Source: Janibacter sp. GXQ6167
GTDB taxonomy: Bacteria; Actinomycetota; Actinomycetes; Actinomycetales; Dermatophilaceae
Reading direction: 5' to 3'
Length of the DNA stretch: 10,179 nt
NCBI RefSeq assembly: GCF_041365945.1
Contig: NZ_JBGFSK010000017.1
Coordinates: 2,555 to 12,733 of the forward strand
The stretch's first letter is position 1, and each line of letters starts with the position of its first letter. Positions 1 through 9,919 of the stretch are shown here, in pieces. Below the pieces are notes generated by a model. That model worked only from the letters and a program-made list of their open reading frames with translations. It ran no database searches and had not been told where the DNA came from. The translations under genes were made by a program, and so were the position numbers.

Positions 1-537
1 GCATCTTCGGACATTACATTCACCTTCTTCTGCTTTCTCTCACTGCCGCCCTTCCCCATGTGCCCGGCTTTCCCGGCCTCGGAGTACTACGACGGCTCCG
101 CCCCACCCGCACCCTTCGGCTGGCAACGCACCTATCCCCACCAATGCGGGGAGCGGAATGCGGATGGTTCCCACGTTCACTGTTGTTCGGTTGACGGGCG
201 AGGCGTCCGGCTTTACCCCTGCGGCATCGTCGTGGCTACGCCGTAGACCTTCACCACGACCTGCCGGACCCGACACATACCACCGTTCCGACAGTTCCCC
301 ACCCGCCACGACCATCAACGATGGCCCCGACAAGCGGTTACGCACCGCAAACCAGCCCCGATCCACCGGGTTAGAGCTGGGCGACGATCAAGAGGCTTTA
401 CGACACCGGTTCCTCTCGTACACCTTCCCGCCTTGCTCACCAGACACGGCCCATCCGGTAGTACTGGACCGTCCTGACTATGTCACGGCTGCTCCCACCC
501 ACCCCAGGCGTTCCCCCAGGACAGGCTGCCGTCAGCT

Positions 538-1123
538 TCACTCGGCCGCTACGACGGCCAATCGATCAAGGTCTCTCACCTCCATCCGATACAACAGCGC
601 CTCGTGGCGCACGACGTGCTCGTCGACACCGATCGTGGTGACCCCGTCGAACCGACCAGGATCGTCGATCAGGCGCCGCTTGCCCTCCGCGAGCACCGCA
701 GTGTTCGCGGCGCTCCAGGAAACCCCAAGACCGGCGGCGACACGGGTCACGGTGAGGTGGTCGACGACGATGCCCCGCAGCGCCCACTCCACGCCGAGGC
801 GGGAGATCTTCGCTCGTGGCGCGGCGGCGCGAGTCATGTCCCGCCGCCACGTCCGCCGGCAGTGCGCGCACCGGTAGCGGCGGACCCGGACCAGAAGCGT
901 TGTCGGCCTATGCCCGAACGGCTCATGCGCGAGTCGACGCGTCACCGTGTCCCGCGACACACCCCTCCGCCCCGCACTTCCGACACCAGGGGTCCACCTC
1001 GACCGACCGACACTCGATCATCGCCCGGTCCCGCTCGAGCAGCTGGCCGACCGCTTCGAGCCCGAGTTCATCGAGGCGGCAGAACGTGGTCAGGTCAGGG
1101 GTCGCGAAAGTAGGGTGGAGCAC
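538..1123 (-). pseudogene. ISL3-family transposase, N-terminal ~195 codons only, interrupted by at least one frameshift (near 925-960) and 3'-truncated.
   Basis: Two overlapping minus-strand ORFs (923..1123 and 538..960) together reconstruct a contiguous ISL3 transposase N-terminus across different frames. No ATG lies in frame upstream; the track's M at 1123 is a GTG. An alternative MMEVLHARHPER... start lies in another frame, which suggests further decay. Confidence 0.7.
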
Positions 1124-1202
1124 GTCGAGGTCTTTCGGGATGGCGAGCGTGAAGAACTTCCATCATCCGGGAGACCTCGACCCCTACCCGGCTGCCAACG
1201 CG

Positions 1203-1236
1203 CTCACCCGACTACACCCTCATTCGTGAAGAGCCC
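1203..1236 (-). repeat. Terminal inverted repeat (outer end at ~1236) of the ISL3-family element. Its exact inner boundary is uncertain.
   Basis: RC of plus strand 1228-1236 = GGGCTCTTC, followed by ACGAATGAGGGTGTAG. The integrase reading frame reads through this sequence into a stop (…IGLFTNEGVVG*), marking the insertion junction. Confidence 0.45.
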
Positions 1237-1653
1237 GATAAGACGGGCGACGTTGCGGCTGACGAGTTCGTCGCGCATCGCGCGGGTCAGGGCGGCGGAC
1301 AGTACGGTGCGGAACTTCTGTGCGGTGCGGATTGAGTGGCCCTCGTCGAGCAGCGCGCAGGCGGCGTTCTGCACGTCGCGCACGGTGAGCTGGGTCAGGC
1401 GCTTGCTGCCGATGCGAGGAAGGATGTGCAGTCGCACGACGCCCTCGTATCCCCGTGCGGTGTTGCGTCGGTTGCGGCGCGGCACGACTGTCTCTAGCCA
1501 CTGCTGCAGATAGCCGGCGACCGTGACCTGTGAGTTCGGGGTCAGGATGCCGCGGCCCTCGTGCCGCGGCCCGCCCGGGCGCTTGCGTCGCCTTGCGACC
1601 CGCCGGATCGGCTCGAAAAGACGTTCTGTGGTATATCTATTACGAGAGGCCAT
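1204..1653 (-). pseudogene. Tyrosine recombinase / phage-type integrase, N-terminal core-binding (SAM-like) domain only. The native sequence spans ~1237..1653. The catalytic domain is missing because of the ISL3 insertion.
   Basis: Translation from ATG (RC of 1651-1653): MASRNRYTTERLFEPIRRVARRRKRPGGPRHEGRGILTPNSQVTVAGYLQQWLETVVPRRNRRNTARGYEGVVRLHILPRIGSKRLTQLTVRDVQNAACALLDEGHSIRTAQKFRTVLSAALTRAMRDELVSRNVARLI... This matches the integrase N-terminal core-binding domain pattern: YLxxWL, hydrophobic-rich helix (RLHILPRIG), and SxxTxxKxxxxLxxALxxA. The ORF then continues into the IS terminal repeat and stops. No R..HxxR..Y catalytic domain is present. Confidence 0.7.
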
Positions 1654-1714
1654 ATACAGGATGCACCTGGGCCTTGTCTGGGGGCTACCCAGATCGAGTC
1701 TGGAGGTGTACGGC

Positions 1715-2329
1715 GTGGCCGCGCGAGTCGTCGATGTGCGTTGTCCGGGATGCGGGAGCGCCTGGAGCACCAACCAGCAGTTCTGCCAGTACTGCGGTCG
1801 CCAGGTGCTGATCAGCTCGATGTCCGACCTGATCAGCCTGGAAGCGCGCGACCTCAAGAAGCACGTCCGTACCTACGAGGACGCGCTGGACGAGGGCGCC
1901 GATGATCCGAGCGTGCATGCGGCGCTCGGCATGTGCCTGCTCAAGCTGGGGCTGCGCGACAAGGCGCTGTCGCACTTCGAGGATGCGCTGCTCGATGACA
2001 TCGAGAACTCGGAACCGTACTTCTACGCCGCCGTCGCGTCGCTGGGTGGCAAGAAGCCGTTCCTGGTTCCGCTGGCTGGCATCCGCCGCGCGGAGGAGTA
2101 CCTCACGGCGGCGCTGCGGCTCGAGGAGCGCGGAATCTACGCCTACCTCTACGGGTACATCCGCTTCGACTACTACGAGCGCAAGTCGCTGAACGTCGAG
2201 CCGTCGTACCAGCACTACCTGCAGCAGGCAGTGCTTCGCGGTGTGACCGATCTGGACATCCAGACGCTGTTCGAGCTGCTGGAGATCGTCCCTTCGTCCG
2301 CTTCCATTCCGACCAGCGTTTCCGCCTGA
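1715..2329 (+). CDS. Zinc-ribbon protein with a C-terminal TPR-like, all-helical domain (204 aa from the GTG at 1715). It is possibly a YdjG-like component.
   Basis: It is the first gene of the co-directional operon. GGAGG at 1702-1706 lies 8 nt upstream of the GTG at 1715. Starting here avoids overlap with the integrase fragment on the opposite strand. The N-terminus has the ribbon CPGCG-x9-FCQYCG (1742-1800). The remainder (…ALGMCLLKLGLRDKALSHFEDALLDD…EEYLTAALRLEERGIYAYLYGYIRFDYYERKS…) is TPR-like helical. The 1523..1714 extension in the ORF track would overlap the integrase start and is RP-rich, so I reject it. Confidence 0.7.
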   Translation: MAARVVDVRCPGCGSAWSTNQQFCQYCGRQVLISSMSDLISLEARDLKKHVRTYEDALDEGADDPSVHAALGMCLLKLGLRDKALSHFEDALLDDIENSEPYFYAAVASLGGKKPFLVPLAGIRRAEEYLTAALRLEERGIYAYLYGYIRFDYYERKSLNVEPSYQHYLQQAVLRGVTDLDIQTLFELLEIVPSSASIPTSVSA

Positions 2330-2365
2330 CCCCTGTTCTAACCACCCGAGAGAGGTTCCTTCGCA

Positions 2366-3061
2366 ATGGCCATCAACTATGAGCGCAACAAGAAGTACTT
2401 CAAGCAGTCCAGCCCCAAGGCCGGCATCATCCTGATCGTGATCGGCCTGGTGCTGACGCTCGCCCTCCCCGAGGCGGGCAAGCTCGTCGGCATCCTGGGC
2501 ATCCTGGGTGGCGCGGCGCTGATCTACTTCCAGTTCGCGGGCAAGCCGAGCGACGCGGACATCGACTCGGACGCTGCTGCCGCCATCGCGGACGTGAAGA
2601 AGCGCGCGCTGGGCAAGCTCGGTCTGGACGAGGACGAGGTCAAGCTCATCGACCCGGTGATCGTTCACGGCTACTACTACAAGAACATCGCCTCGGGCGT
2701 GCAGGTCAAGCTCGGCAAGGACCGCGTCTTCCGTTCCTCGAACTACGAGGGCGTCGTGCTGTTCTTCAGCGAGCACCAGCTGCACGCGTTCAAGTTCCAG
2801 TTCTCTCTCGTCTCGCCGCAGGAGAGCCGCGAGCAGACCGACGAGTACTTCTACAAGGACGTCGTGTCGGTGGCGACGCAGTCGGAGACGTTCAAGATCA
2901 ACGACATCAAGGGCAACAGCCAGCAGGTCAACTTCGAGGAGTTCAAGCTCACCACCACGGGTGGCACCTCGATCACTTCGTCGATCCGCGACGAGGGCTC
3001 GGTCAGCCGCGTCATCTCCGGCGCGCGCAGCCTGATTCGCGAGAAGAAGATCGCGTCCTGA
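2366..3061 (+). CDS. Membrane-anchored protein (231 aa). It has an N-terminal hydrophobic hairpin (AGIILIVIGLVLTLAL…LVGILGILGGAALIYF) and a soluble ~170-aa domain. It is possibly YdjH-like.
   Basis: ATG at 2366 is preceded by GAGAGAGG (2348-2355), and it lies 36 bp after the stop of the upstream gene. The protein is unusually Lys-rich (K > R) for a high-GC host, yet it keeps high GC3 (AAG, TTC, TAC codons). Confidence 0.75.
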   Translation: MAINYERNKKYFKQSSPKAGIILIVIGLVLTLALPEAGKLVGILGILGGAALIYFQFAGKPSDADIDSDAAAAIADVKKRALGKLGLDEDEVKLIDPVIVHGYYYKNIASGVQVKLGKDRVFRSSNYEGVVLFFSEHQLHAFKFQFSLVSPQESREQTDEYFYKDVVSVATQSETFKINDIKGNSQQVNFEEFKLTTTGGTSITSSIRDEGSVSRVISGARSLIREKKIAS

Positions 3062-3079
3062 CCCCGAGTTCTCTGCGTG

Positions 3080-3112
3080 CCGGGGCCGGTCGGCAGTCGC
3101 CACCGGCTCCGG
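3080..3112 (+). promoter_or_regulatory. Intergenic stem-loop between the membrane-protein gene and the ATPase gene (11-bp stem, 11-nt loop). It may be a partial terminator/attenuator or an RNA-processing element.
   Basis: CCGGGGCCGGT (3080-3090), loop CGGCAGTCGCC, ACCGGCTCCGG (3102-3112). The arms are complementary except for one G·U pair. No U-tract follows, so it is not a classical intrinsic terminator. Confidence 0.3.
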
Positions 3113-3156
3113 CACACCAATTCCGCTGCCCGAGCGTGACGTGAGGAGTGTGCCGT

Positions 3157-5841
3157 ATGCCCGCAGGCGACGCGCCCCTGACGTTCACGCCTCTCGCGCA
3201 GGGTGAAGTAGCCGCTGCTACGGTGGTCGAGGTCGTCCGCATCCCGCACGTCTCCGTGCTGGGCGATGATCCGGCTGCCGAGCTGGTGCAGCAGTCCAAG
3301 CGGGACTTCGTCAGCCTGCTGTTCGAGGCGTACCAGTCGTACCGCGGACAGTACGAGGACGGCCCCGACCGAGCTAGCGACTGCGCTCTGGAACTGCTTT
3401 GGCAAGCACACCCCATTCAGGGCCAGCCGCACGCCGCCGACCTCACGCTATTCATCATCGTTCGCGCGATCGGCGCGAACCGGGACGACGCAGCGGCGGT
3501 TGTCAACGAGCTGCACGCTGTCGTGATCAGCGCGCTCACGCTCGGCGGCTTCGACTACGCAGATCGTCCTGCCTCCGCGATCGGCGCCCAGGCGGCGGAA
3601 CGGTCGGTTGCGCTCGTGAAGGAGGAGTGGATTGAGAACCTCGGCAACCAGATCCTGCCGAGCGCCTTCGCCTTCCACCGTATCCCCACGGGCAGCCGTG
3701 ATCTCTCACGTATCGCCAGCGCCCTAACCGAGGTGCCCGGTGCGTCCCTCTCGGTTCAGCTGATCCCGGCGACACTGGAGCCTGACGAGCGGACTGCTAT
3801 CGAGCAGCTGACGCTGGCGCTCACGACCCTCGCCAACGGTGTGACGGATCAGTCGATCGGTACCGTCAGCTTCACCGCGGCGAAGCGCCTCGCGGAGATG
3901 TACTCGTATCTGGAGGGGCACAAGGACTCGCCCCTGTTTCTGTTTAACGTCGTCGTCTCCGGGCCGAAGCTCGCCGTGCCGGTGATCGCCAACCGGGTGC
4001 TCGGTCACCTCTCCGCCGACGCCGAGGTAGGCGCGCTGGCGGCACGCTTCGTCGACGCCACAGCCCTGGTGCCACGAGGCGATGCGTCCTTCGTCGCTGC
4101 ACCGTGGCAGCTGAACGAGACGCTGCTCGACCAGACTCGTGATCCGTCGCTCTGGGCGGCGGGCCGCAATCCCGGTGAGGCATTCTACCGGCTGCCGTTC
4201 CTGCTGACGGCATTCGAGGCATCGGAGTTGTTCCGTCTGCCGATCGGCAGTGACACGGTCGGCGCCGGGCTGACGGTGAACACCACGACCCGGCACTCGC
4301 GCAACTACTCGGCCGGCGTGATCGGGAGCTCGAGCATCGAAGCCGGGCGACTCGCCGGGGCGGCCGAGGTCTCGATCGGGTTCGGGCATACCGACCTGAC
4401 CAAGCACGCTTTCGTCACGGGGACGCCCGGTTCGGGTAAGACGACGTTCACGGTCGGGCTGCTCGACCGGCTCTGGCACGAGCACGGCATCCCGTATCTG
4501 GTGATCGAGCCGGCGAAGAACGAGTACCGGGCGCTGATCGAGACGACGCCGGATCTGCAGGTGTTCACCCCGGGCAAGGATCATCTGTCTCCGCTTGTGC
4601 TGAACCCGTTCCTGCCGCCAGCGGGCGTGCGGGTGCAGAGCTACAAGTCGACCCTCAAGACGGCGTTCGCAGCCGCGGTCACGATGACGAGCCCCCTGGA
4701 CAAGATCTTCGAGGACGCCCTCTCAGCCACGTACTCGCGGTTTGGCTGGTTCGATGCCGACACAGCCGCCGATGGCCGTGAGGTGTTCTCTATCCGCGAC
4801 TTCCTGGCCGTTTTCCAGGAGACCTTCGTCCGCATCGGCTACACCGGAGACGCGGCCAACATCGGACGAGCAGGCCAGGTGCGCCTGCAGAGTCTGGTTG
4901 GCCTGTTCGACACCTACCCTTCGATCCCTGTCGAGGATCTGCTGTCGAAACCCACGGTAATCGAGCTGGCAGGGATCGAGAACAGCGACGACAAGGCCCT
5001 CTACATCGCGCTCATCCTGCTGCAGGTCCTCGCCTACGTGAACGCCAACGTCGCCGGCGACGGGAAACTCAAGCACGTCCTCCTGCTCGAAGAAGCCCAC
5101 GTCTTGCTCGACGCCGACGACGCCAGCGGACCGGGCGAAGCGGACCCCGCCGCGATTGCGAAGAAGCTGCTCAAACGCATGTTGGCCGAGATCCGCTCCT
5201 ACGGCGTCGGCATCATCGTGGCCGATCAGTCGCCACGCAAGGTCGGCTCGGACGTGGTGGCGCTCACGAACATCAAGCTCGGGTTCCGGCTGGTCGAGGC
5301 CGCAGACAAGGAGATCCTGGCCGAGAGCACCAACATGAGCGACGCGCAGCGCGAGCGGCTGGCGCGGCTCCGGCCGGGCGAGGCACTCCTGTTCTACGAC
5401 CGCCTCGAAGACCCCGAGGAGATCGCCACAGCCGACTGGCGCGCCCAGCGCGGCATCCCGACGTTCGTGTCCGATGAGGAGATCGCCCGAAAGGTCACTT
5501 ACTGGCAGCGGCACCCGGAACTGCTCATGCCATACCCGGAGAGCGCCTACATCGGGGGCTGGGACGCCTCGGTTGCCGGTGCGGGCAAGGAGATCGCCCG
5601 GCGCCTCTTCGCCGCGCACGTCCCGGCCGGCGATGTCGGCGTCAAGAGATTCGGCAGCATCTACCGGCAGCTCGATGCGTTCATCGCCGCCGAACTTCCC
5701 GCGTCGATCCCGAACACGCCGGCCCTGCGGCGAGCGGTCAAGGTCAACTTCCTGCGGCTGGTCAAGTACGAGTCGCAGATCCCACTGTCGGACGCCACGA
5801 TCCACAAGACCCTCGAAGCCGAGAGGAGCCGCACAGCATGA
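3157..5841 (+). CDS. HerA/FtsK-superfamily (DUF87 / HerA-like) P-loop ATPase, 894 aa. The ~420-aa N-terminal domain is unassigned.
   Basis: GAGGAG (3143-3148) lies 8 nt upstream of the ATG at 3157; the track's GTG at 3148 has no spacer. Walker A is GTPGSGKTT (~4420-4446), followed by YLVIEPAKNEY and LVLNPF; HerA proteins have …IFDPHGEY…INPF in the same positions. Walker B is HVLLLEEAHVLL (~5074-5100). The C-terminal motif GVGIIVADQSPRKVGSDVVALTNIKLGFRL matches the HerA 'RKYGvgl.lvtQrPsel…' region. The stop overlaps the next start (ATGA at 5838-5841). Confidence 0.85.
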   Translation: MPAGDAPLTFTPLAQGEVAAATVVEVVRIPHVSVLGDDPAAELVQQSKRDFVSLLFEAYQSYRGQYEDGPDRASDCALELLWQAHPIQGQPHAADLTLFIIVRAIGANRDDAAAVVNELHAVVISALTLGGFDYADRPASAIGAQAAERSVALVKEEWIENLGNQILPSAFAFHRIPTGSRDLSRIASALTEVPGASLSVQLIPATLEPDERTAIEQLTLALTTLANGVTDQSIGTVSFTAAKRLAEMYSYLEGHKDSPLFLFNVVVSGPKLAVPVIANRVLGHLSADAEVGALAARFVDATALVPRGDASFVAAPWQLNETLLDQTRDPSLWAAGRNPGEAFYRLPFLLTAFEASELFRLPIGSDTVGAGLTVNTTTRHSRNYSAGVIGSSSIEAGRLAGAAEVSIGFGHTDLTKHAFVTGTPGSGKTTFTVGLLDRLWHEHGIPYLVIEPAKNEYRALIETTPDLQVFTPGKDHLSPLVLNPFLPPAGVRVQSYKSTLKTAFAAAVTMTSPLDKIFEDALSATYSRFGWFDADTAADGREVFSIRDFLAVFQETFVRIGYTGDAANIGRAGQVRLQSLVGLFDTYPSIPVEDLLSKPTVIELAGIENSDDKALYIALILLQVLAYVNANVAGDGKLKHVLLLEEAHVLLDADDASGPGEADPAAIAKKLLKRMLAEIRSYGVGIIVADQSPRKVGSDVVALTNIKLGFRLVEAADKEILAESTNMSDAQRERLARLRPGEALLFYDRLEDPEEIATADWRAQRGIPTFVSDEEIARKVTYWQRHPELLMPYPESAYIGGWDASVAGAGKEIARRLFAAHVPAGDVGVKRFGSIYRQLDAFIAAELPASIPNTPALRRAVKVNFLRLVKYESQIPLSDATIHKTLEAERSRTA

Positions 5842-7019
5842 GCGACTACGGCACCGACATTGCAGACGCCCCCGTCGACACCGGCGCGGACGTCAGCGTG
5901 CCCGATACGACCGACTACGCCGACGAGCCGGTCGACCTGGCCGAGACCCCGCCCGAGTCGGAGGCGCCCGAGGCCGAGGAGGCGCCGCCCGCCGAAGACC
6001 TCTCGGAGCCCGCAGCAGATGAACTGAGCGGCACGGCGGAGACGCCGGCGGATGCGGAGGCACCCGTCGACCTGGGCGCGGCCCCGGAAACGGCCGACGC
6101 CGCCCCGGAACAGCCCCAGGACTGGCAGGAGGGCGAGGTCGTCGATCTCGGCGACGACGCTGCCCCCGACGCCCCGCAGGAGGACGAGACCGCCGAGGCG
6201 GACGATCCTGCCGGGCGCGACCTGGGTGATCCCGACCTGGCCGACAGCCCGGAGGCCGAGGCTCCCACGGATAGCGCCGGTGAGGATCTGACGACACCGA
6301 CGGACGACGAACCGGGCGCCGGTGATGCGCCGACTGACGCCGACGAGCAGGTACCTGAGGCGGCGGAGATTGAGCCCGAGGCCGCAAACGACGTGACGGA
6401 TGCCGAACCCGAGCCCAGGGTCGATGAGTTGACAGAGGCGGCCCGGGATGAGGCCCGCCCCGCCGACGAGCTGCGCGCCGAGTACTACGCCGACGTGGCT
6501 GATGTGCTGGCCGATGACACACCATCCGACGCCGAGCCGGTCGAGACGCAGGACACTCCCGGAGCAGACGCTGCCGAGGCGCCGGAGTCGAGCGATCACG
6601 CGGACGCCGCCAATGACCGCAGCAACTCCCCAGAGAACGAGGCACTGACCTCGGCGCTAGCCGAGAAAGGCCTGTCGCTGGAGCCGGTCGATCGCTTCGA
6701 CTACAGCGACAACCCGGTTCTCGGCTACCGCGAGTCCGCCCCGCCCGAAGACGTCGCGTACGCCGTCAACGCCTGGAACGACGAGATCGCGCCCGGCATC
6801 GCGGCCGGCGCGACCCGTGAGGACTTCGCCGCCTACGACCAGGAGCACGGCCTCGAAGGGCAGCGGCAGCTGGCCGGCGTCTACGACTACATGCTCGGCG
6901 GCGACGCGATCAAGAGCGGCGGAGAGCGCGAGGACGGATCGCTCGACGTCACCGGCGGCAGGCACCGCCTGGAACAGGCGCGTCTGAACGGCGTCCAGTA
7001 CCTGCCCGTGAGGAAGTAG
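5838..7019 (+). CDS. Acidic, low-complexity protein (393 aa). It has a ~270-aa D/E/A/P-rich, presumably disordered N-terminal region and a ~120-aa C-terminal globular domain.
   Basis: Translationally coupled by an ATGA overlap, with GAGAGGAG at 5821-5828. The frame shows clean high-GC codon usage (GAC/GAG/GCC/CCC), while the alternative frames are Arg/Pro-rich junk. The C-terminus contains …VYDYMLGGDAIKSGGEREDGSLDVTGGRHRLEQARLNGVQYLPVRK. The GGxHRxxxAxxxG…PV stretch is reminiscent of ParB/Srx box II, but that is tentative. Confidence 0.65.
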   Translation: MSDYGTDIADAPVDTGADVSVPDTTDYADEPVDLAETPPESEAPEAEEAPPAEDLSEPAADELSGTAETPADAEAPVDLGAAPETADAAPEQPQDWQEGEVVDLGDDAAPDAPQEDETAEADDPAGRDLGDPDLADSPEAEAPTDSAGEDLTTPTDDEPGAGDAPTDADEQVPEAAEIEPEAANDVTDAEPEPRVDELTEAARDEARPADELRAEYYADVADVLADDTPSDAEPVETQDTPGADAAEAPESSDHADAANDRSNSPENEALTSALAEKGLSLEPVDRFDYSDNPVLGYRESAPPEDVAYAVNAWNDEIAPGIAAGATREDFAAYDQEHGLEGQRQLAGVYDYMLGGDAIKSGGEREDGSLDVTGGRHRLEQARLNGVQYLPVRK

Positions 7020-7056: not shown

Positions 7057-8256
7057 ATGAAGATCTACGACGTCATCAAGAACGAGACCGGCCTTCTCAA
7101 CGACGGCCTGGGCTCGAAGGCCGTGCTGGCGTGGAAGTTCACCGGTGAGGACTTCAACGACAACACGCAGCTGATCGTCTCCGAATCGGAGGAGGCGATC
7201 TTCATCCGCGACGGCATCGCCGTGGCGACCTTCGGCGGCGGCCGCTACACGCTCAACAGCAACAACCACCCCTTCATCGGCAGGCTGAGGAACCTGCTCT
7301 CCGGCGGGGTGAGCGCGTTCAGCTCGCGGGTGTACTTCGTCAACATCGATCACAAGTTGGAACTGCTGTGGGGCACCGACAGCCCGATCCAGCTCCGCGA
7401 CCCGGTCTGGAGCCTGCAGACCAGCGTGCAGGCGCGCGGCTCGTACTCGATCCAGGTGACGGACTCCAAGAAGTTCCTGATCAAACTGCTCGGCACCAAC
7501 ATCCAGGTTTTCGACGAGCAGCAGCTCGCCGGCTACTTCCGCAGCGCCTTCTCGCAGCACATCCGCGGACAGATCGCCCGCTACATCCGCGACTCCGGCC
7601 AGGAGATCCTGGAGATCACCTCGGACATCGAGCTGCTGGCCGAGCAGCTGCACCCGAGGCTCGCACCGCTGCTGGATGAGTACGGCGTGAAGCTCGTCAA
7701 CTTCTACATCGCCGCGATCGACATCCCCACCGACGACCCGAACCGCCAAGTGCTGGAGAACTCGATCGCACAGAAGCAGGCCAAGCTGCAGAGCGCGCAG
7801 GGCGATAAGGCCGTCATGGGGCTGCTCGGGGAAGACTGGGCCAGGCAGCAGTCGGCCACCATCCTCACCGAGCTCGCCAAGAACCCCGGCGCGGGTGGCG
7901 TGGCTTCCGCGGGTGCCGCAGCAGGCGTTGGCCTGGCTGCGGGCAGCGTCTTCGGGGAGATGGCGACGCAGATGTTCACGCGCCCCGTCCAGCCCGCAGG
8001 CGACCCGATGGCTGGCAATGTCGGGCGCAACCGCACATCGCGCTTCTCGCCCGCAGAGCCTGCCGCGCCGGCCGCCGCCGAGACGTGTCCGGGCTGCGGC
8101 GCGAGCGTGGCGGCGGGAGCGAAGTTCTGCCCGGAGTGCGGCAACCGTCTCGCACCTCAGCAGGTGCCCTGCTCGGGTTGCGGAACCGCAATCGCGAGCA
8201 CGGCCAAGTTCTGCCCCGAATGCGGAACGCCGAACAACCAGGGAGCATCCTCATGA
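7057..8256 (+). CDS. SPFH/Band-7-family protein (COG4260 / PF13421-like, 'putative virion core protein' group) with C-terminal tandem (double) zinc ribbons, 399 aa. YdjI-like.
   Basis: The N-terminal ~250 aa match the COG4260 pattern as I recall it: MKIYDVIKNE…, GGRYTLNSNNHPFIG, YFVNIDHKLELLWGTDSPI, ARGSYSIQVTDSKKF. A Gly/Ala-rich linker follows. Then come two tandem ribbons, CPGCG-x9-FCPECG and CSGCG-x9-FCPECG (8086-8229). The stop overlaps the next start (ATGA at 8253-8256). Confidence 0.85.
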   Translation: MKIYDVIKNETGLLNDGLGSKAVLAWKFTGEDFNDNTQLIVSESEEAIFIRDGIAVATFGGGRYTLNSNNHPFIGRLRNLLSGGVSAFSSRVYFVNIDHKLELLWGTDSPIQLRDPVWSLQTSVQARGSYSIQVTDSKKFLIKLLGTNIQVFDEQQLAGYFRSAFSQHIRGQIARYIRDSGQEILEITSDIELLAEQLHPRLAPLLDEYGVKLVNFYIAAIDIPTDDPNRQVLENSIAQKQAKLQSAQGDKAVMGLLGEDWARQQSATILTELAKNPGAGGVASAGAAAGVGLAAGSVFGEMATQMFTRPVQPAGDPMAGNVGRNRTSRFSPAEPAAPAAAETCPGCGASVAAGAKFCPECGNRLAPQQVPCSGCGTAIASTAKFCPECGTPNNQGASS

Positions 8257-8930
8257 CCCGCACGATCCTGCGCGCCATCCTGTGGCTCGTCCCCATCGCC
8301 GTCTACGTCGCCATCTTCCTCATCCTCGAGGCCCCGCAGGGCGCGACGTTCTGGACGTCCGCACTGCTGCTGGCGTTCGCCTACGTCATGCTCGCCGTCA
8401 GTTTCGTCGCCGTGCCGCGCAGTCGGATAGCCGCGATCCTGGCCATGCCCCTGATCCTGGTGGCGAGCATCTACTTCACTGCCGAGCTCATCGCGGCCAG
8501 CATCTTCATCTACGTGCAGGACATTCCATACCCGTGGGTGATCATCACGCAGCTGATCCTGGCCGCGATCTTCCTCGTCGTGTTCCTCACCACCTTGTTG
8601 TCCAACGAGGCCATCGCCGCCCAGATCGAGACCCAGCACGCCGACGTCCTGGTGATCAAGAGCGCCGTCACCCGCATCACGGCCCTGGGACGTGTCGCCC
8701 ACGATCCGCGCCTGGCGAAGTCGCTGGACGGGCTGGCCGAGGAGTTCCGCTACAGCCCGACGATGCGCTCGAACCAGGTGCGCGAAGTCGACGCGCAGAT
8801 CGCCGTGCAGCTCGAGCGACTGGAGAGCCTCGTCCACATCCAAGCTTCGCAAGAGGATACCGTCGGCCAGATCGCGGCGATATCCGGGGCGCTCGCTTCA
8901 CGCAACGAGGCGATCAAGCTCCGCCAGTAG
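8253..8930 (+). CDS. Integral membrane protein (225 aa). It has 4 predicted TM helices and a ~75-aa C-terminal helical, coiled-coil-like cytoplasmic tail.
   Basis: ATG at 8253 with GGGAG at 8241-8245. It has four long hydrophobic segments (ILWLVPIAVYVAIFLIL; ALLLAFAYVMLAVSFVAV; AAILAMPLILVASIYFTAELIAASIFIYV; VIITQLILAAIFLVVFLTTLL). The track's longer ORF starting at 8085 overlaps the zinc-ribbon coding region of the upstream gene in another frame, so I reject it. Confidence 0.75.
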   Translation: MTRTILRAILWLVPIAVYVAIFLILEAPQGATFWTSALLLAFAYVMLAVSFVAVPRSRIAAILAMPLILVASIYFTAELIAASIFIYVQDIPYPWVIITQLILAAIFLVVFLTTLLSNEAIAAQIETQHADVLVIKSAVTRITALGRVAHDPRLAKSLDGLAEEFRYSPTMRSNQVREVDAQIAVQLERLESLVHIQASQEDTVGQIAAISGALASRNEAIKLRQ

Positions 8931-9226
8931 GAGGAGGTGCATAGGGCAGACCCGCGCGCAGATCCGGCCACGGCTGCGGCACCAGCTGGTCGAGCGTGAC
9001 ACCGAGCACCTGCGCGATGGCCATGATCTTGCGCAGACTCGGGTTGGCCGGAGTCTCCGGCATCGACTCGCCCTTCTCGAACTTCTGGAAGGTGTAGCGC
9101 GTGAGCCCAGCGGCGTAGGCAACCTGCTCCTGGGTGAGTCCACGGTCGATCCGGTGCCGCTGAATGCTGGCACCAAGTTCGCGCGCGTACTGGGGCCAAG
9201 GGCCATCGGGTCGTCGTTTTTGCCAT
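8914..9226 (-). pseudogene. XRE-family helix-turn-helix transcriptional regulator (~104 aa if repaired). Its reading frame is disrupted by a +1 frameshift in a T5 homopolymer (plus strand 9217-9221) immediately after the start codon.
   Basis: The minus-strand frame reads …KRRPDGPWPQYARELGASIQRHRIDRGLTQEQVAYAAGLTRYTFQKFEKGESMPETPANPSLRKIMAIAQVLGVTLDQLVPQPWPDLRAGLPYAPPPTGGA*. This is the classic XRE pattern (GLTQEQVA…G…R…ExG). There is no in-frame start, and a stop lies directly upstream. The ATG at the RC of 9224-9226 is +1 out of frame. Deleting one A from the AAAAA run restores MAKRRPDGPWPQYARELG…. The 3' end overlaps the 3' end of the convergent membrane-protein gene by ~17 bp. Confidence 0.6.
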
Positions 9227-9376
9227 CACCCCAGGCTGAGCAGGTGGCCTCCCGGAACGAACCTCCTGTATATGGCAATAGATCCGCTCGATCAGTAACC
9301 CCGCGTGGCCGTCGGCGACGATAGGCGCATGAATGAAGAAGGCCCGGGAGCCGCTCCAGCCGAGAACTCGTGGTTC

Positions 9377-9919
9377 TCAAGGCCGGGGCGAACTCCCGAG
9401 CAGGGCGTGCAGCTGATGGCTGGCTGGTGAGACGGCGCGAATGCGGGTCTCGTGGAGGGCGGGGTCGTGCGTGCGCAGGTACATCGCCCAGAACGCCGCG
9501 TCGGCATACGTTGTGTGCAGATCTGACTGCGCCCGCCAGCCGCTCGAAGCGGTGCGCCGGTAGCCGACTTCGTAAGGGCCGCCATGCAGGAGTTCCTGCA
9601 CGAGTGATGCCGGGACGTCACCGACCGGGTAGGTGCTGCCGATATCGCCCACGAGGAGCACGTCGCCGTGCAACGCCGGCCGCTGCCTTGAAGTGGTGTC
9701 CCAGAACCAGCGCAGCGACGAGGCGCGCAGGTTCATCGGGAGCCCGTTTCGGCGGTCGTCGGCGTCGAGCCACATCGTGACACCTCGGCTCTCGATGTCG
9801 ATCGGGATCACCAGATCAGCGAGCTGCTGAATGTCTGCGAACCCTGCGACCTCCCGCGTTTCGAGTTGTTGCTCGATCTGCGCCGGGATGAGAACAGCCG
9901 TGACGGTCTCACCATTCAC
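9377..9919 (-). CDS. Hypothetical protein, 180 aa, Trp-rich. It may be a small mobile-element-associated protein.
   Basis: It is the longest ORF in this region, with a balanced amino-acid composition (MNGETVTAVLIPAQIEQQLETREVAGFADIQQLADLVIPIDIESRGVTMWLDADDRRNGLPMNLRASSLRWFWDT…). The overlapping plus-strand ORF 9370..9780 is Arg/Pro-rich junk. No convincing SD sits upstream, so confidence is moderate. Confidence 0.45.
   Translation of the reverse strand: MNGETVTAVLIPAQIEQQLETREVAGFADIQQLADLVIPIDIESRGVTMWLDADDRRNGLPMNLRASSLRWFWDTTSRQRPALHGDVLLVGDIGSTYPVGDVPASLVQELLHGGPYEVGYRRTASSGWRAQSDLHTTYADAAFWAMYLRTHDPALHETRIRAVSPASHQLHALLGSSPRP

Follow-up and report, generated by a model that had tools for sequence, protein, structure and literature searches.

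A gene coupled to a HerA-like ATPase encodes a two-part acidic protein

We analyzed a 10,179-nt stretch of DNA from Janibacter sp. GXQ6167 (hereafter the window; GC ~66%, actinobacterial DNA), focusing on a forward-strand gene for a 393-aa protein that consists of a polyacidic leader and a C-terminal payload of predicted ParB/Srx fold (5838..7019 including the stop codon). Anticipating the role proposed for it below, we call it the cargo gene. Its open reading frame (ORF), taken from the ORF list and starting with ATG, has a codon-position GC of 0.80/0.49/0.85 (GC3 0.85), like the adjoining genes; it is thus the coding frame, and the overlapping ORFs in other frames are high-GC artefacts. The gene directly follows one for a HerA/DUF87-like P-loop ATPase, and reading the sequence of the junction between them (5821..5841, +) revealed a Shine-Dalgarno sequence, GAGAGGAG, at 5821-5828 and a start codon, ATG at 5838-5840, that overlaps the ATPase stop codon, TGA at 5839-5841. 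A first-pass annotation of this DNA had read translational coupling from the ATGA overlap, and this was supported by comparison of six close loci, namely the window, L001 (Microbacterium sp. HA-8, NZ_CP162025.1, 1207779-1230463), L002 (an Actinomycetota metagenome-assembled genome) and the metagenomic loci L012, L014 and L015: the overlap is kept in all six, as ATGA in five and as TTGA in one.

All six loci share one six-gene arrangement with the cargo gene at the matching position, and L016 (Modestobacter lapidis) provides a seventh, more distant copy. The first-pass annotation had named lack of conservation in homologous loci as a reason to doubt the ORF; instead, the gene is intact, in frame and syntenic in L001, L002, L012, L014, L015 and L016, despite lengths that span 300-519 aa. 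Across the seven loci the cargo proteins measure 300, 357, 393, 398, 414, 424 and 519 aa, and all of these length changes are in-frame indels within the acidic part, including a duplication of ~100 aa in L002. The L002 orthologue (12688-14247) has a TTG start, and its duplicated stretch of acidic tract includes a PHDWQEDE-x-LDLG island; a second duplicated segment reads EEPHQEYDAEA. In L002 and L015 the cargo stop codon overlaps the ATG of the following SPFH gene.

The leader is a predicted disordered polyanion with conserved charge

Residues 1-262 form the leader (5838..6623, +). They consist to 73% of D/E/A/P/T and contain 87 D+E and 6 K+R residues, with a net charge of -81 and an acidic residue every 3.0 positions, the largest gap being 6. 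The whole cargo protein has 111 D+E and 18 K+R residues, a charge of about -93 at pH 7 and an isoelectric point of ~4.05. Furthermore, the charge-hydropathy boundary places the leader among disordered sequences (H 0.397 vs 0.524). Composition and charge-hydropathy thus agree with the strongly negative, presumably disordered D/E/A/P/T tract described in the first-pass annotation, which had proposed the isoelectric point and disorder as checks. Its repeated PE, AE and AD motifs fared less well: only three weak 2-copy arrays are present at the DNA level in the window, which rules out a tandem-repeat origin of this tract, although repeat expansions do exist in L002, L017 and L020. The recurrent element of the leader is instead [DE]-L. 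D or E precedes ten of its 11 leucines, there are 7 DL pairs (shuffle p ~0.0008), and 21 [DE]-hydrophobic pairs were observed where 10.7 were expected, a number reached in none of 5000 shuffles. These residues make up ten [DE]-L islands across residues 1-262 (VDLAE, EDLSE, VDLGA, VVDLGD, RDLGD, PDLAD, EDLTT and DELS/T/R). A more conserved, helix-like stretch, VDELTEAARDEARPADELRAEYYADVADVL, is located at about residues 195-224; a Y-x-x-x-[DE] export signal for type VII secretion systems (T7SS) was considered there and rejected, as by eye it is not conserved among orthologues.

Comparison of the six close orthologues showed that the leader drifts while its charge does not. Leader identity is 35-76% with many gaps, compared to 67-97% with almost no gaps for the last 131 aa, and yet leader charge density stays steady at 27-33% D+E. 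The tract length, whose conservation had been put forward as a check, therefore varies by in-frame indels while the charge density is kept. Since charge density is maintained amid drift in identity and length, the comparison indicates that the charge and a few islands of the leader are selected for, and its sequence and length are not.

The C-terminal domain is a predicted minimal ParB/Srx fold

The compact C-terminal domain noticed in the first pass was confirmed by structure prediction (residues 263-393; 6624..7016, +). AlphaFold2 with a 61-sequence alignment as input gave a predicted local distance difference score (pLDDT) of 96.2 and a predicted template modeling score (pTM) of 0.88, and replaced a single-sequence run without alignment that had reached pLDDT 54. 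The model contains the alpha+beta core of the ParB/Srx fold with a helical insert at about residues 303-353. The values listed for known structures against the domain were 6.2 for SbnI, 6.2 for KorB, 6.1 for the ParB-like PadC, 6.1 for plant sulfiredoxin, 6.0 for human sulfiredoxin and 5.1 for pNOB8 ParB. Judged by this model, the domain has a ParB/Srx fold that is minimal and divergent and includes a ~50-residue helical insert. It ends directly past the strand that follows its G-x-H-R motif, 16 residues after R377, and there is consequently no room for Box III, a helix-turn-helix (HTH) or a dimerization domain; none of these, nor a ParA-binding motif, was found in the domain, as judged from the model and the regular expression [LFI]G[KR]G[LFI].

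Scans of the cargo protein and of the isolated C-terminal domain against Pfam, NCBIfam and PADLOC (E <= 10) returned no match, ParB_N included, and phmmer of the single sequence against the PDB returned only a chance-level match to carbonic anhydrase. An exhaustive HMMER search of 1.84 billion representatives identified at least 239 relatives of the domain at E <= 0.001, 91 of them at E <= 1e-10. A first, word-indexed homologue search had a sole match, P0001 (JGI sample 3300056388), a 123-aa relative on a 1-kb contig that is 64% identical. Its sequence becomes divergent and terminates shortly ahead of the G-R-H-R motif, its stop codon is overlapped by the following gene, and it may be a decayed copy or a frameshift.

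Among 151 family sequences analyzed, the domain ends at most 9 residues from the C-terminus in 146. Their conservation identifies G373-G374-R375-H376-R377 (GGC GGC AGG CAC CGC; 6954..6968, +) as the predicted phosphate-binding P-motif: G374 is present in 151/151, H376 in 149/151 and R377 in 150/151. The stretch DVTGGRHRLEQARLNGVQYLPV is the most conserved part of the family, with G374 invariant, H376, R377 and A381 at 99%, and G385 and P390 at 97%; other conserved positions of the domain are D305, W/Y308, P319, G324, D334 (151/151), R343, G354, D366-G367 and L389-P390. The P-motif aligns to D-G-V-H-R of SbnI and contains the G-x-x-R of Box II, or P-motif, in the ParB/Srx superfamily. The resemblance of DVTGGRHRLEQARLNGVQYLPV to ParB/Srx box II, only loosely proposed before, is thus strengthened. 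Of the chemistries suggested along with it, nucleotide binding is the best founded, on the basis of the motif, and nuclease-like chemistry gained no specific support.

The motif also recalls ToxB, a ParB-fold ATPase toxin that lacks Box III and has the phosphate motif G105-N106-H107-R108; G105 and R108 are required for its toxicity, and R108A showed that the motif is needed for ATP hydrolysis (bioRxiv 10.64898/2026.05.05.722872). By analogy, ToxB is the closest functional precedent for the C-terminal domain, and motif conservation together with this precedent suggests that the domain most likely binds and hydrolyzes nucleotide and acts as a toxin.

The cargo is the variable element of a conserved gene frame

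Inspection of more distant loci revealed a frame common to the contexts, composed of a zinc-ribbon/TPR protein, a protein of ~213-276 aa, the ATPase, the cargo, an SPFH Band_7_1 protein that carries zinc ribbons or SHOCT, and a membrane protein of ~226-256 aa. Comparison by phmmer confirmed that the frame components of the window and of Firmicutes loci are orthologous, and the cargo is the one variable element. In all lineages examined, the cargo has a polyacidic N-terminus, of ~60-880 aa, followed by different payloads. Microbacterium-like loci and Modestobacter have acidic tracts of 169-388 aa and the ParB/Srx payload (net charge of the Modestobacter cargo, -56). The Oscillospiraceae locus L017 encodes a 952-aa cargo with ~550 aa of hyper-acidic tandem repeats (net -275 for the whole protein) and a payload matching Gln_amidase (7.1e-14) and TNT (1.4e-5, slightly under cutoff); the cargo is followed by an 81-aa ORF that faintly matches an NTF2-fold immunity family. 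L018 encodes the same ATPase sequence as L017, and its cargo is broken into three called genes (L017 10714-13572; L018 6227-9316), probably because the tandem acidic repeats were misassembled or contain a frameshift. L019, L021 and L027, which include low- and high-GC loci, have short cargoes (179-247 aa) with an acidic N-terminus and an HExxH payload, each followed by a homologous ORF of 96-98 aa. Finally, the cargo on a Priestia megaterium plasmid has 1135 aa of acidic repeats, with no domain assigned to its C-terminal region of ~250 aa.

The ATPase that defines these loci (3148..5841, +; 897 aa) has a single Walker A motif, GTPGSGKT, at residue 425, its lysine being K431. It matched Pfam DUF87 (1.3e-6) and, weakly, HerA_C and TrwB; matches to PADLOC mad8 and HerA and to NCBIfam CedD and HerA were partial and far below cutoffs, the best NCBIfam HerA_antiphage score being 37 bits vs a cutoff of 800. 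PDB profile matches were to HerA only. The protein is 93% identical to the chromosomal one of Microbacterium sp. HA-8 and ~48% identical, over ~98% of the query, to ATPases of Firmicutes, Spirochaetes, Planctomycetes and Fibrobacteres, and it has at least 1596 homologues. Among distant DUF87 ATPases (26-28% identity) on IMG/VR contigs, those of L023 and L024 are followed by mildly acidic proteins of 271-277 aa with 19-20% D+E (L023 9362-10177; L024 9356-10189), the start of which overlaps the ATPase end in L023 and lies 12 nt downstream in L024. From these sequences, a diluted acidic-partner rule may reach past the ATPase family studied here.

The remaining frame genes of the window are also on the forward strand. 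Upstream of the ATPase lies a zinc-ribbon and TPR protein (1661..2329; Pfam DZR, Zn_ribbon and TPR matches), listed as an ORF starting at 1523; homologues align from about residue 47 of that ORF, and ATG 1661 is therefore the likely start. Its orthologues were found in L001, L002, L012, L014, L015, L016, L017 and L027. Next is a 231-aa protein (2366..3061) with two N-terminal transmembrane (TM) segments predicted from hydrophobicity (residues 15-33 and 40-58), which is the window's copy of the ~213-276-aa component; neither it nor its conserved C-terminal domain matched a family in Pfam, NCBIfam or PADLOC, and orthologues are present in Actinobacteria and Firmicutes loci. This gene has a codon-position GC (0.56/0.36/0.95) that is skewed relative to its neighbours. 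Downstream of the cargo lies the SPFH/Band_7_1 protein with a C-terminal double zinc ribbon (7057..8256; Band_7_1 1.3e-33, DZR 2.4e-10), orthologues of which are present in all full loci. The last gene encodes a membrane protein with four TM segments predicted by a TM scan (8253..8930). It is listed as a 281-aa ORF (8085-8930) that overlaps the SPFH gene by 172 nt, but because ATG 8253 overlaps the SPFH stop codon (ATGA) and begins at the first TM segment, the protein is probably ~225 aa long and translationally coupled. Orthologues were found in L001, L002, L012, L014, L016, L017 and L019. Convergent with the operon, a 180-aa ORF (9377-9919, -) has a sub-threshold DUF3846 match (1.7e-5, 25.4 bits vs a cutoff of 27.5).

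Several of these loci lie in mobile settings. Just upstream of the window's operon, two fragments on the reverse strand represent mobile-element scars: one is an ISL3-type transposase zinc finger (538-960; Zn_ribbon_ISL3, 3.7e-6), and the other is part of an integrase and has only its N-terminal SAM-like and central domains (1204-1857). Integrase and relaxase genes accompany L017 and L018, and other copies lie on a plasmid and on an IMG/VR contig; megablast of the operon against plasmids gave no match. Also noted on the L017 element (1-3522 and 18483-18682) are a NACHT NTPase of > 1500 aa and, beside the relaxase, a 3044-aa multi-domain protein (MutS_I, SNF2, helicase) that recalls 'polyvalent proteins'.

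Non-acidic relatives of the payload lie mostly in T7SS-like cassettes

The acidic N-terminus is restricted to the closest relatives of the C-terminal domain. Most relatives, some of them 65-73% identical to the window's domain, have charge-balanced helical N-termini of ~105-165 aa instead, and we read seven independent contexts of such proteins. In five of the seven, a large TM-less FtsK/SpoIIIE ATPase with a single recognizable Walker A lies just upstream; in two loci TPR repeats are part of this ATPase, and in another a TPR protein adjoins it. A helical protein of ~87 aa is encoded directly upstream of the relative in each of the seven. Four of these small proteins matched WXG100 or WXG100_2, only that of L005 (30.7 bits) above the curated cutoff of 27, and the remaining three gave generic helical matches with faint or no WXG100 signal. 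In three loci, a helical ORF of ~75 aa with a common W-x-D motif overlaps the relative's stop codon; the only one scanned had a faint WXG100 match (E 0.055). The FtsK/SpoIIIE ATPases are not orthologous to the window ATPase, as similarity is confined to the Walker regions (E 0.005-0.02). A suspected fusion of the ATPase N-terminus to a ParB domain, P0014, was likewise dismissed, the similarity covering 9 residues at E = 0.3. Two further arrangements were seen: in L003 (1351-7130), upstream of the relative, a single gene string runs from an HSP70/MreB-like protein through a TPR protein and GrpE to the FtsK/SpoIIIE ATPase, and in L011 the helical N-terminal module (MTEVRTRDEA...; 8583-8915) and the ParB/Srx domain (9001-9456) are separate ORFs, a split gene or a frameshift.

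A survey by Zhang et al. (2012) described a Tox-ParB class with a DGHHR motif, with Actinobacteria among its phyla and the WXG-type T7SS among its trafficking routes (PMC3482391). By their gene content, the cassettes of the relatives fit that survey's 'mobile versions of T7SS' as well as its WXG-trafficked Tox-ParB class.

Comparison with known systems

Like Tox-ParB and ToxB, the cargo protein carries a minimal ParB-type C-terminal payload without Box III, HTH or dimerization domain. Compared by motif, not by profile, its family, with the motif [N/G/S]-G-[R/Y]-H-R, has G-x-H-R in common with the D-G-H-H-R of Tox-ParB, of which the initial D and the first of the two H are missing; the motif of ToxB is G-N-H-R. 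The C-terminal position behind a trafficking module, characteristic of Tox-ParB, is also that of the domain family studied here, whereas an adjacent immunity gene (Imm20, Imm27, Imm-SuFu) is absent from the window and L016. In contrast to both, the cargo has a polyacidic leader rather than CdiA, RHS or WXG, a HerA-like partner ATPase, a helical insert in its payload and no Pfam ParB_N match; at 393 aa, it also does not occupy the post-VENN position of ToxB in the CdiA of a cdiBAI operon. Canonical ParB proteins differ further, in that the ParB_N match, Box III, HTH, C-terminal dimerization domain and ParA-binding motif are all lacking in the cargo. Compared to sulfiredoxin and SerK/SbnI, the domain is without the catalytic Cys or kinase C-terminal domain, identity is 12-21%, and the context is entirely different.

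With T7SS WXG/LXG toxins, the cluster shares an FtsK-HerA-superfamily ATPase beside a two-module protein (a system-specific N-terminus and a swappable toxin) and small accessory proteins. However, W-x-G is absent from the whole cargo and L-x-G from its first 60 residues, the cargo does not match WXG100, its ATPase is DUF87/HerA-like rather than FtsK_SpoIIIE, and the accessory proteins are TPR, 2-TM, SPFH and membrane proteins rather than Ess/Ecc; T7SS substrate features are partly present in the non-acidic relatives only. The closest solved ATPases belong to HerA-effector anti-phage systems (Sir2-HerA, DUF4297-HerA) and archaeal HerA, and a variable effector partner and frequent mobility are further points of likeness. 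Yet similarity is limited to ~100 core residues, the window ATPase has a unique N-terminal region of ~390 aa and falls below the family cutoff, and the cargo protein has no PADLOC match. Moreover, the cargoes combine acidic leaders with toxin-type domains, some with partner ORFs, and the cluster includes membrane and SPFH components.

Ocr and ArdA are folded acidic DNA mimics, and SSB and T7 gp2.5 have acidic C-tails. All four resemble the leader in their high negative charge density, and a motif of the Oscillospiraceae cargo, DIPEDVPED, recalls the D-D-D-I-P-F tip of SSB; however, there is no sequence or fold similarity to Ocr or ArdA, and the leader extends over hundreds of residues at the N-terminus, joined to enzymatic payloads. 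The first-pass proposal of a DNA mimic as in anti-restriction proteins thus lost ground, as no family match was obtained and such mimics are folded rather than disordered. Finally, in the Bacillus subtilis ydj operon, Band-7 and zinc-ribbon (Band-7+ZnR) and zinc-ribbon proteins were described beside pspA (PMC11237479). The window's SPFH/Band_7_1 protein with zinc ribbons and its zinc-ribbon partner are similar, but the window cluster has no PspA, and the ydj operon has no HerA-like ATPase or acidic cargo.

The combination of components was not found in the open-access full-text literature, although an earlier description elsewhere is possible, and the cluster is not described in the polymorphic-toxin survey (PMC3482391) or in the phage-shock-protein/Band-7 survey. 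Apparently new are thus a leader type and an ATPase partner for a polymorphic toxin/effector system, and a Pfam-invisible ParB/Srx subfamily.

Proposed role of the cargo and alternatives

HerA/FtsK-class motors are normally DNA pumps. We favor, with about even confidence, the interpretation that the cargo is a polymorphic toxin-like effector and that its polyanionic leader is a handle engaged by the ATPase, probably for export. The cargo gene would be the variable effector of a conserved five-component mobile-element cluster that comprises the Zn-ribbon/TPR protein, the 2-TM protein, the HerA-like hexameric-type ATPase, the SPFH scaffold and the polytopic membrane protein. The leader would serve as a DNA-like polyanionic handle that is bound or threaded by the HerA/FtsK-class ATPase, which would bring the payload to the membrane apparatus or through it; the TPR protein would be an adaptor, the 2-TM, SPFH and polytopic proteins would form the membrane platform, and the delivered payload would be a nucleotide-dependent ParB-fold toxin. 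Toxicity, nucleotide use, engagement of the leader by the ATPase and export are steps that we infer from sequence comparison. The ParB/Srx domain is best seen as a swappable payload because it is common to two ATPase-linked contexts with different N-terminal modules, and because other lineages have bona fide polymorphic-toxin domains in its slot of the HerA-like cluster; the acidic tract, as the only feature common to all cargoes, appears to be a module specific to the HerA-like system.

Several observations weigh against this interpretation. No immunity-like small ORF follows the ParB/Srx cargo, either in the window, where a 37-nt gap precedes the SPFH gene, or in Modestobacter L016; the window neighbours have no Imm-family match in Pfam, and a consistent recognizable immunity gene is also absent from the contexts read for the ParB/Srx relatives, whereas two other payload types do have a small partner ORF. 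None of the cargoes carries a signal peptide, and a component that could form a channel was not identified in the clusters. The closest solved ATPases are DNA-handling or anti-phage HerA rather than protein translocases. Furthermore, the cargo of L027 is not adjacent to its ATPase, and among ATPases of 26-36% identity the acidic neighbour becomes faint or the gene context differs, so that extending the acidic-cargo rule to such ATPases had a weak or negative outcome. The interpretation also draws on ~10 independent loci inspected out of at least 1596 ATPase homologues.

A missing immunity gene would suit an intracellular abortive-infection or defense effector, in which case there would be no export: the HerA-like ATPase would sense and activate, the acidic tract would inhibit the effector or dock it on the hexamer, and phage DNA or membrane damage (via the SPFH and TM proteins) would trigger killing or arrest of the host. 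The nearest library and PDB matches of the ATPase are indeed HerA, including anti-phage-associated HerA models and PADLOC mad8 and HerA, but all matches to defense HerA models are partial and far below curated cutoffs (37 bits vs 800). The location of the cluster on mobile elements and beside a NACHT protein in L017 would fit defense as well; however, small partner ORFs come after two other payload types (81 aa, with its faint immunity-family match, and 96-98 aa) as in toxin-immunity pairs, Gln_amidase and TNT are domains that typify secreted polymorphic toxins, and WXG100/T7SS-like cassettes also contain the ParB/Srx domain. ParB-type domains are used in other defense systems (Menshen, GmrSD and SspE), but these are of the DUF262 kind with a DNA-binding domain (PMC12065111), which the cargo protein lacks. 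We therefore regard a defense effector as rather unlikely.

The suggestion of the first-pass annotation that the acidic tract gates or regulates the ATPase is carried further by a model in which the cargo is neither toxin nor delivered protein but a stoichiometric regulator or DNA mimic, with the tract filling the ATPase's pore or the surface with which it binds DNA (alternatively, that of a nucleoid or restriction protein) and a nucleotide switch provided by the ParB/Srx domain. ParB-ParA is an example of a ParB-fold nucleoside triphosphate (NTP) switch paired with an ATPase. ParB-fold proteins as NTP switches that partner ATPases (bioRxiv 10.64898/2026.05.05.722872), the conserved 4-nt start/stop overlap and the DNA-like polyanion of one charge per 3 residues are compatible with such a model. 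It is nevertheless insufficient, because the same acidic N-terminus is fused to Gln_amidase+TNT or HExxH near orthologous ATPases in other phyla, and because the same ParB/Srx domain lies behind non-acidic WXG-type helical modules in T7SS-like cassettes, beside a different ATPase family; it leaves both unexplained, and no ArdA- or Ocr-type similarity was found in Pfam, NCBIfam, PADLOC and PDB sequence scans. Regulation of the ATPase thus appears improbable, and what stays alive of the earlier idea is DNA-like mimicry toward the ATPase as a handle. The unrelated payloads and the WXG contexts indicate that the tract behaves like a leader specific to its system, with the ParB/Srx domain as an exchangeable payload. 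The short conserved islands, the tolerance of ~60-880 aa length variation and the tandem repeat expansion could also be accommodated if the cargo were exported but not threaded, the tract being a wall-spanning spacer or a metal- or wall-binding stalk that displays the payload, and the ATPase recognizing only the short N-terminal and [DE]-L islands or the TPR protein. We give this little credence, as no sorting signal or wall anchor is present in the cargo, and it is a sub-variant of the toxin-delivery interpretation rather than a true alternative.

If export by threading is indeed what the cluster does, it would represent an undescribed delivery pathway of Gram-positive and other bacteria, in which a HerA/FtsK-class motor exports polymorphic toxins by threading a DNA-mimicking disordered leader, and the TPR, 2-TM, SPFH and polytopic proteins provide receptor and conduit, the protein studied here being a Microbacteriaceae cargo of the ParB/Srx kind; this fuller proposal is tentative, and we hold it to be doubtful as it stands. 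Were it true, the polymorphic-toxin repertoire would include a trafficking module that is a charge-defined disordered leader and not a folded domain, and a HerA-like ATPase family of at least 1,596 members across phyla, currently without assigned biology, would acquire one. It would also provide a testable link between DNA-pump ATPases and protein substrates, a sequence rule by which to find new toxins (an acidic leader beside the ATPase) and a portable leader for export engineering. The range of the ParB/Srx fold is extended by a large, Pfam-invisible actinobacterial G-x-H-R family in two ATPase-linked delivery contexts, and even if the cargo served in defense, the cluster would be an undescribed multi-gene system with modular effectors.

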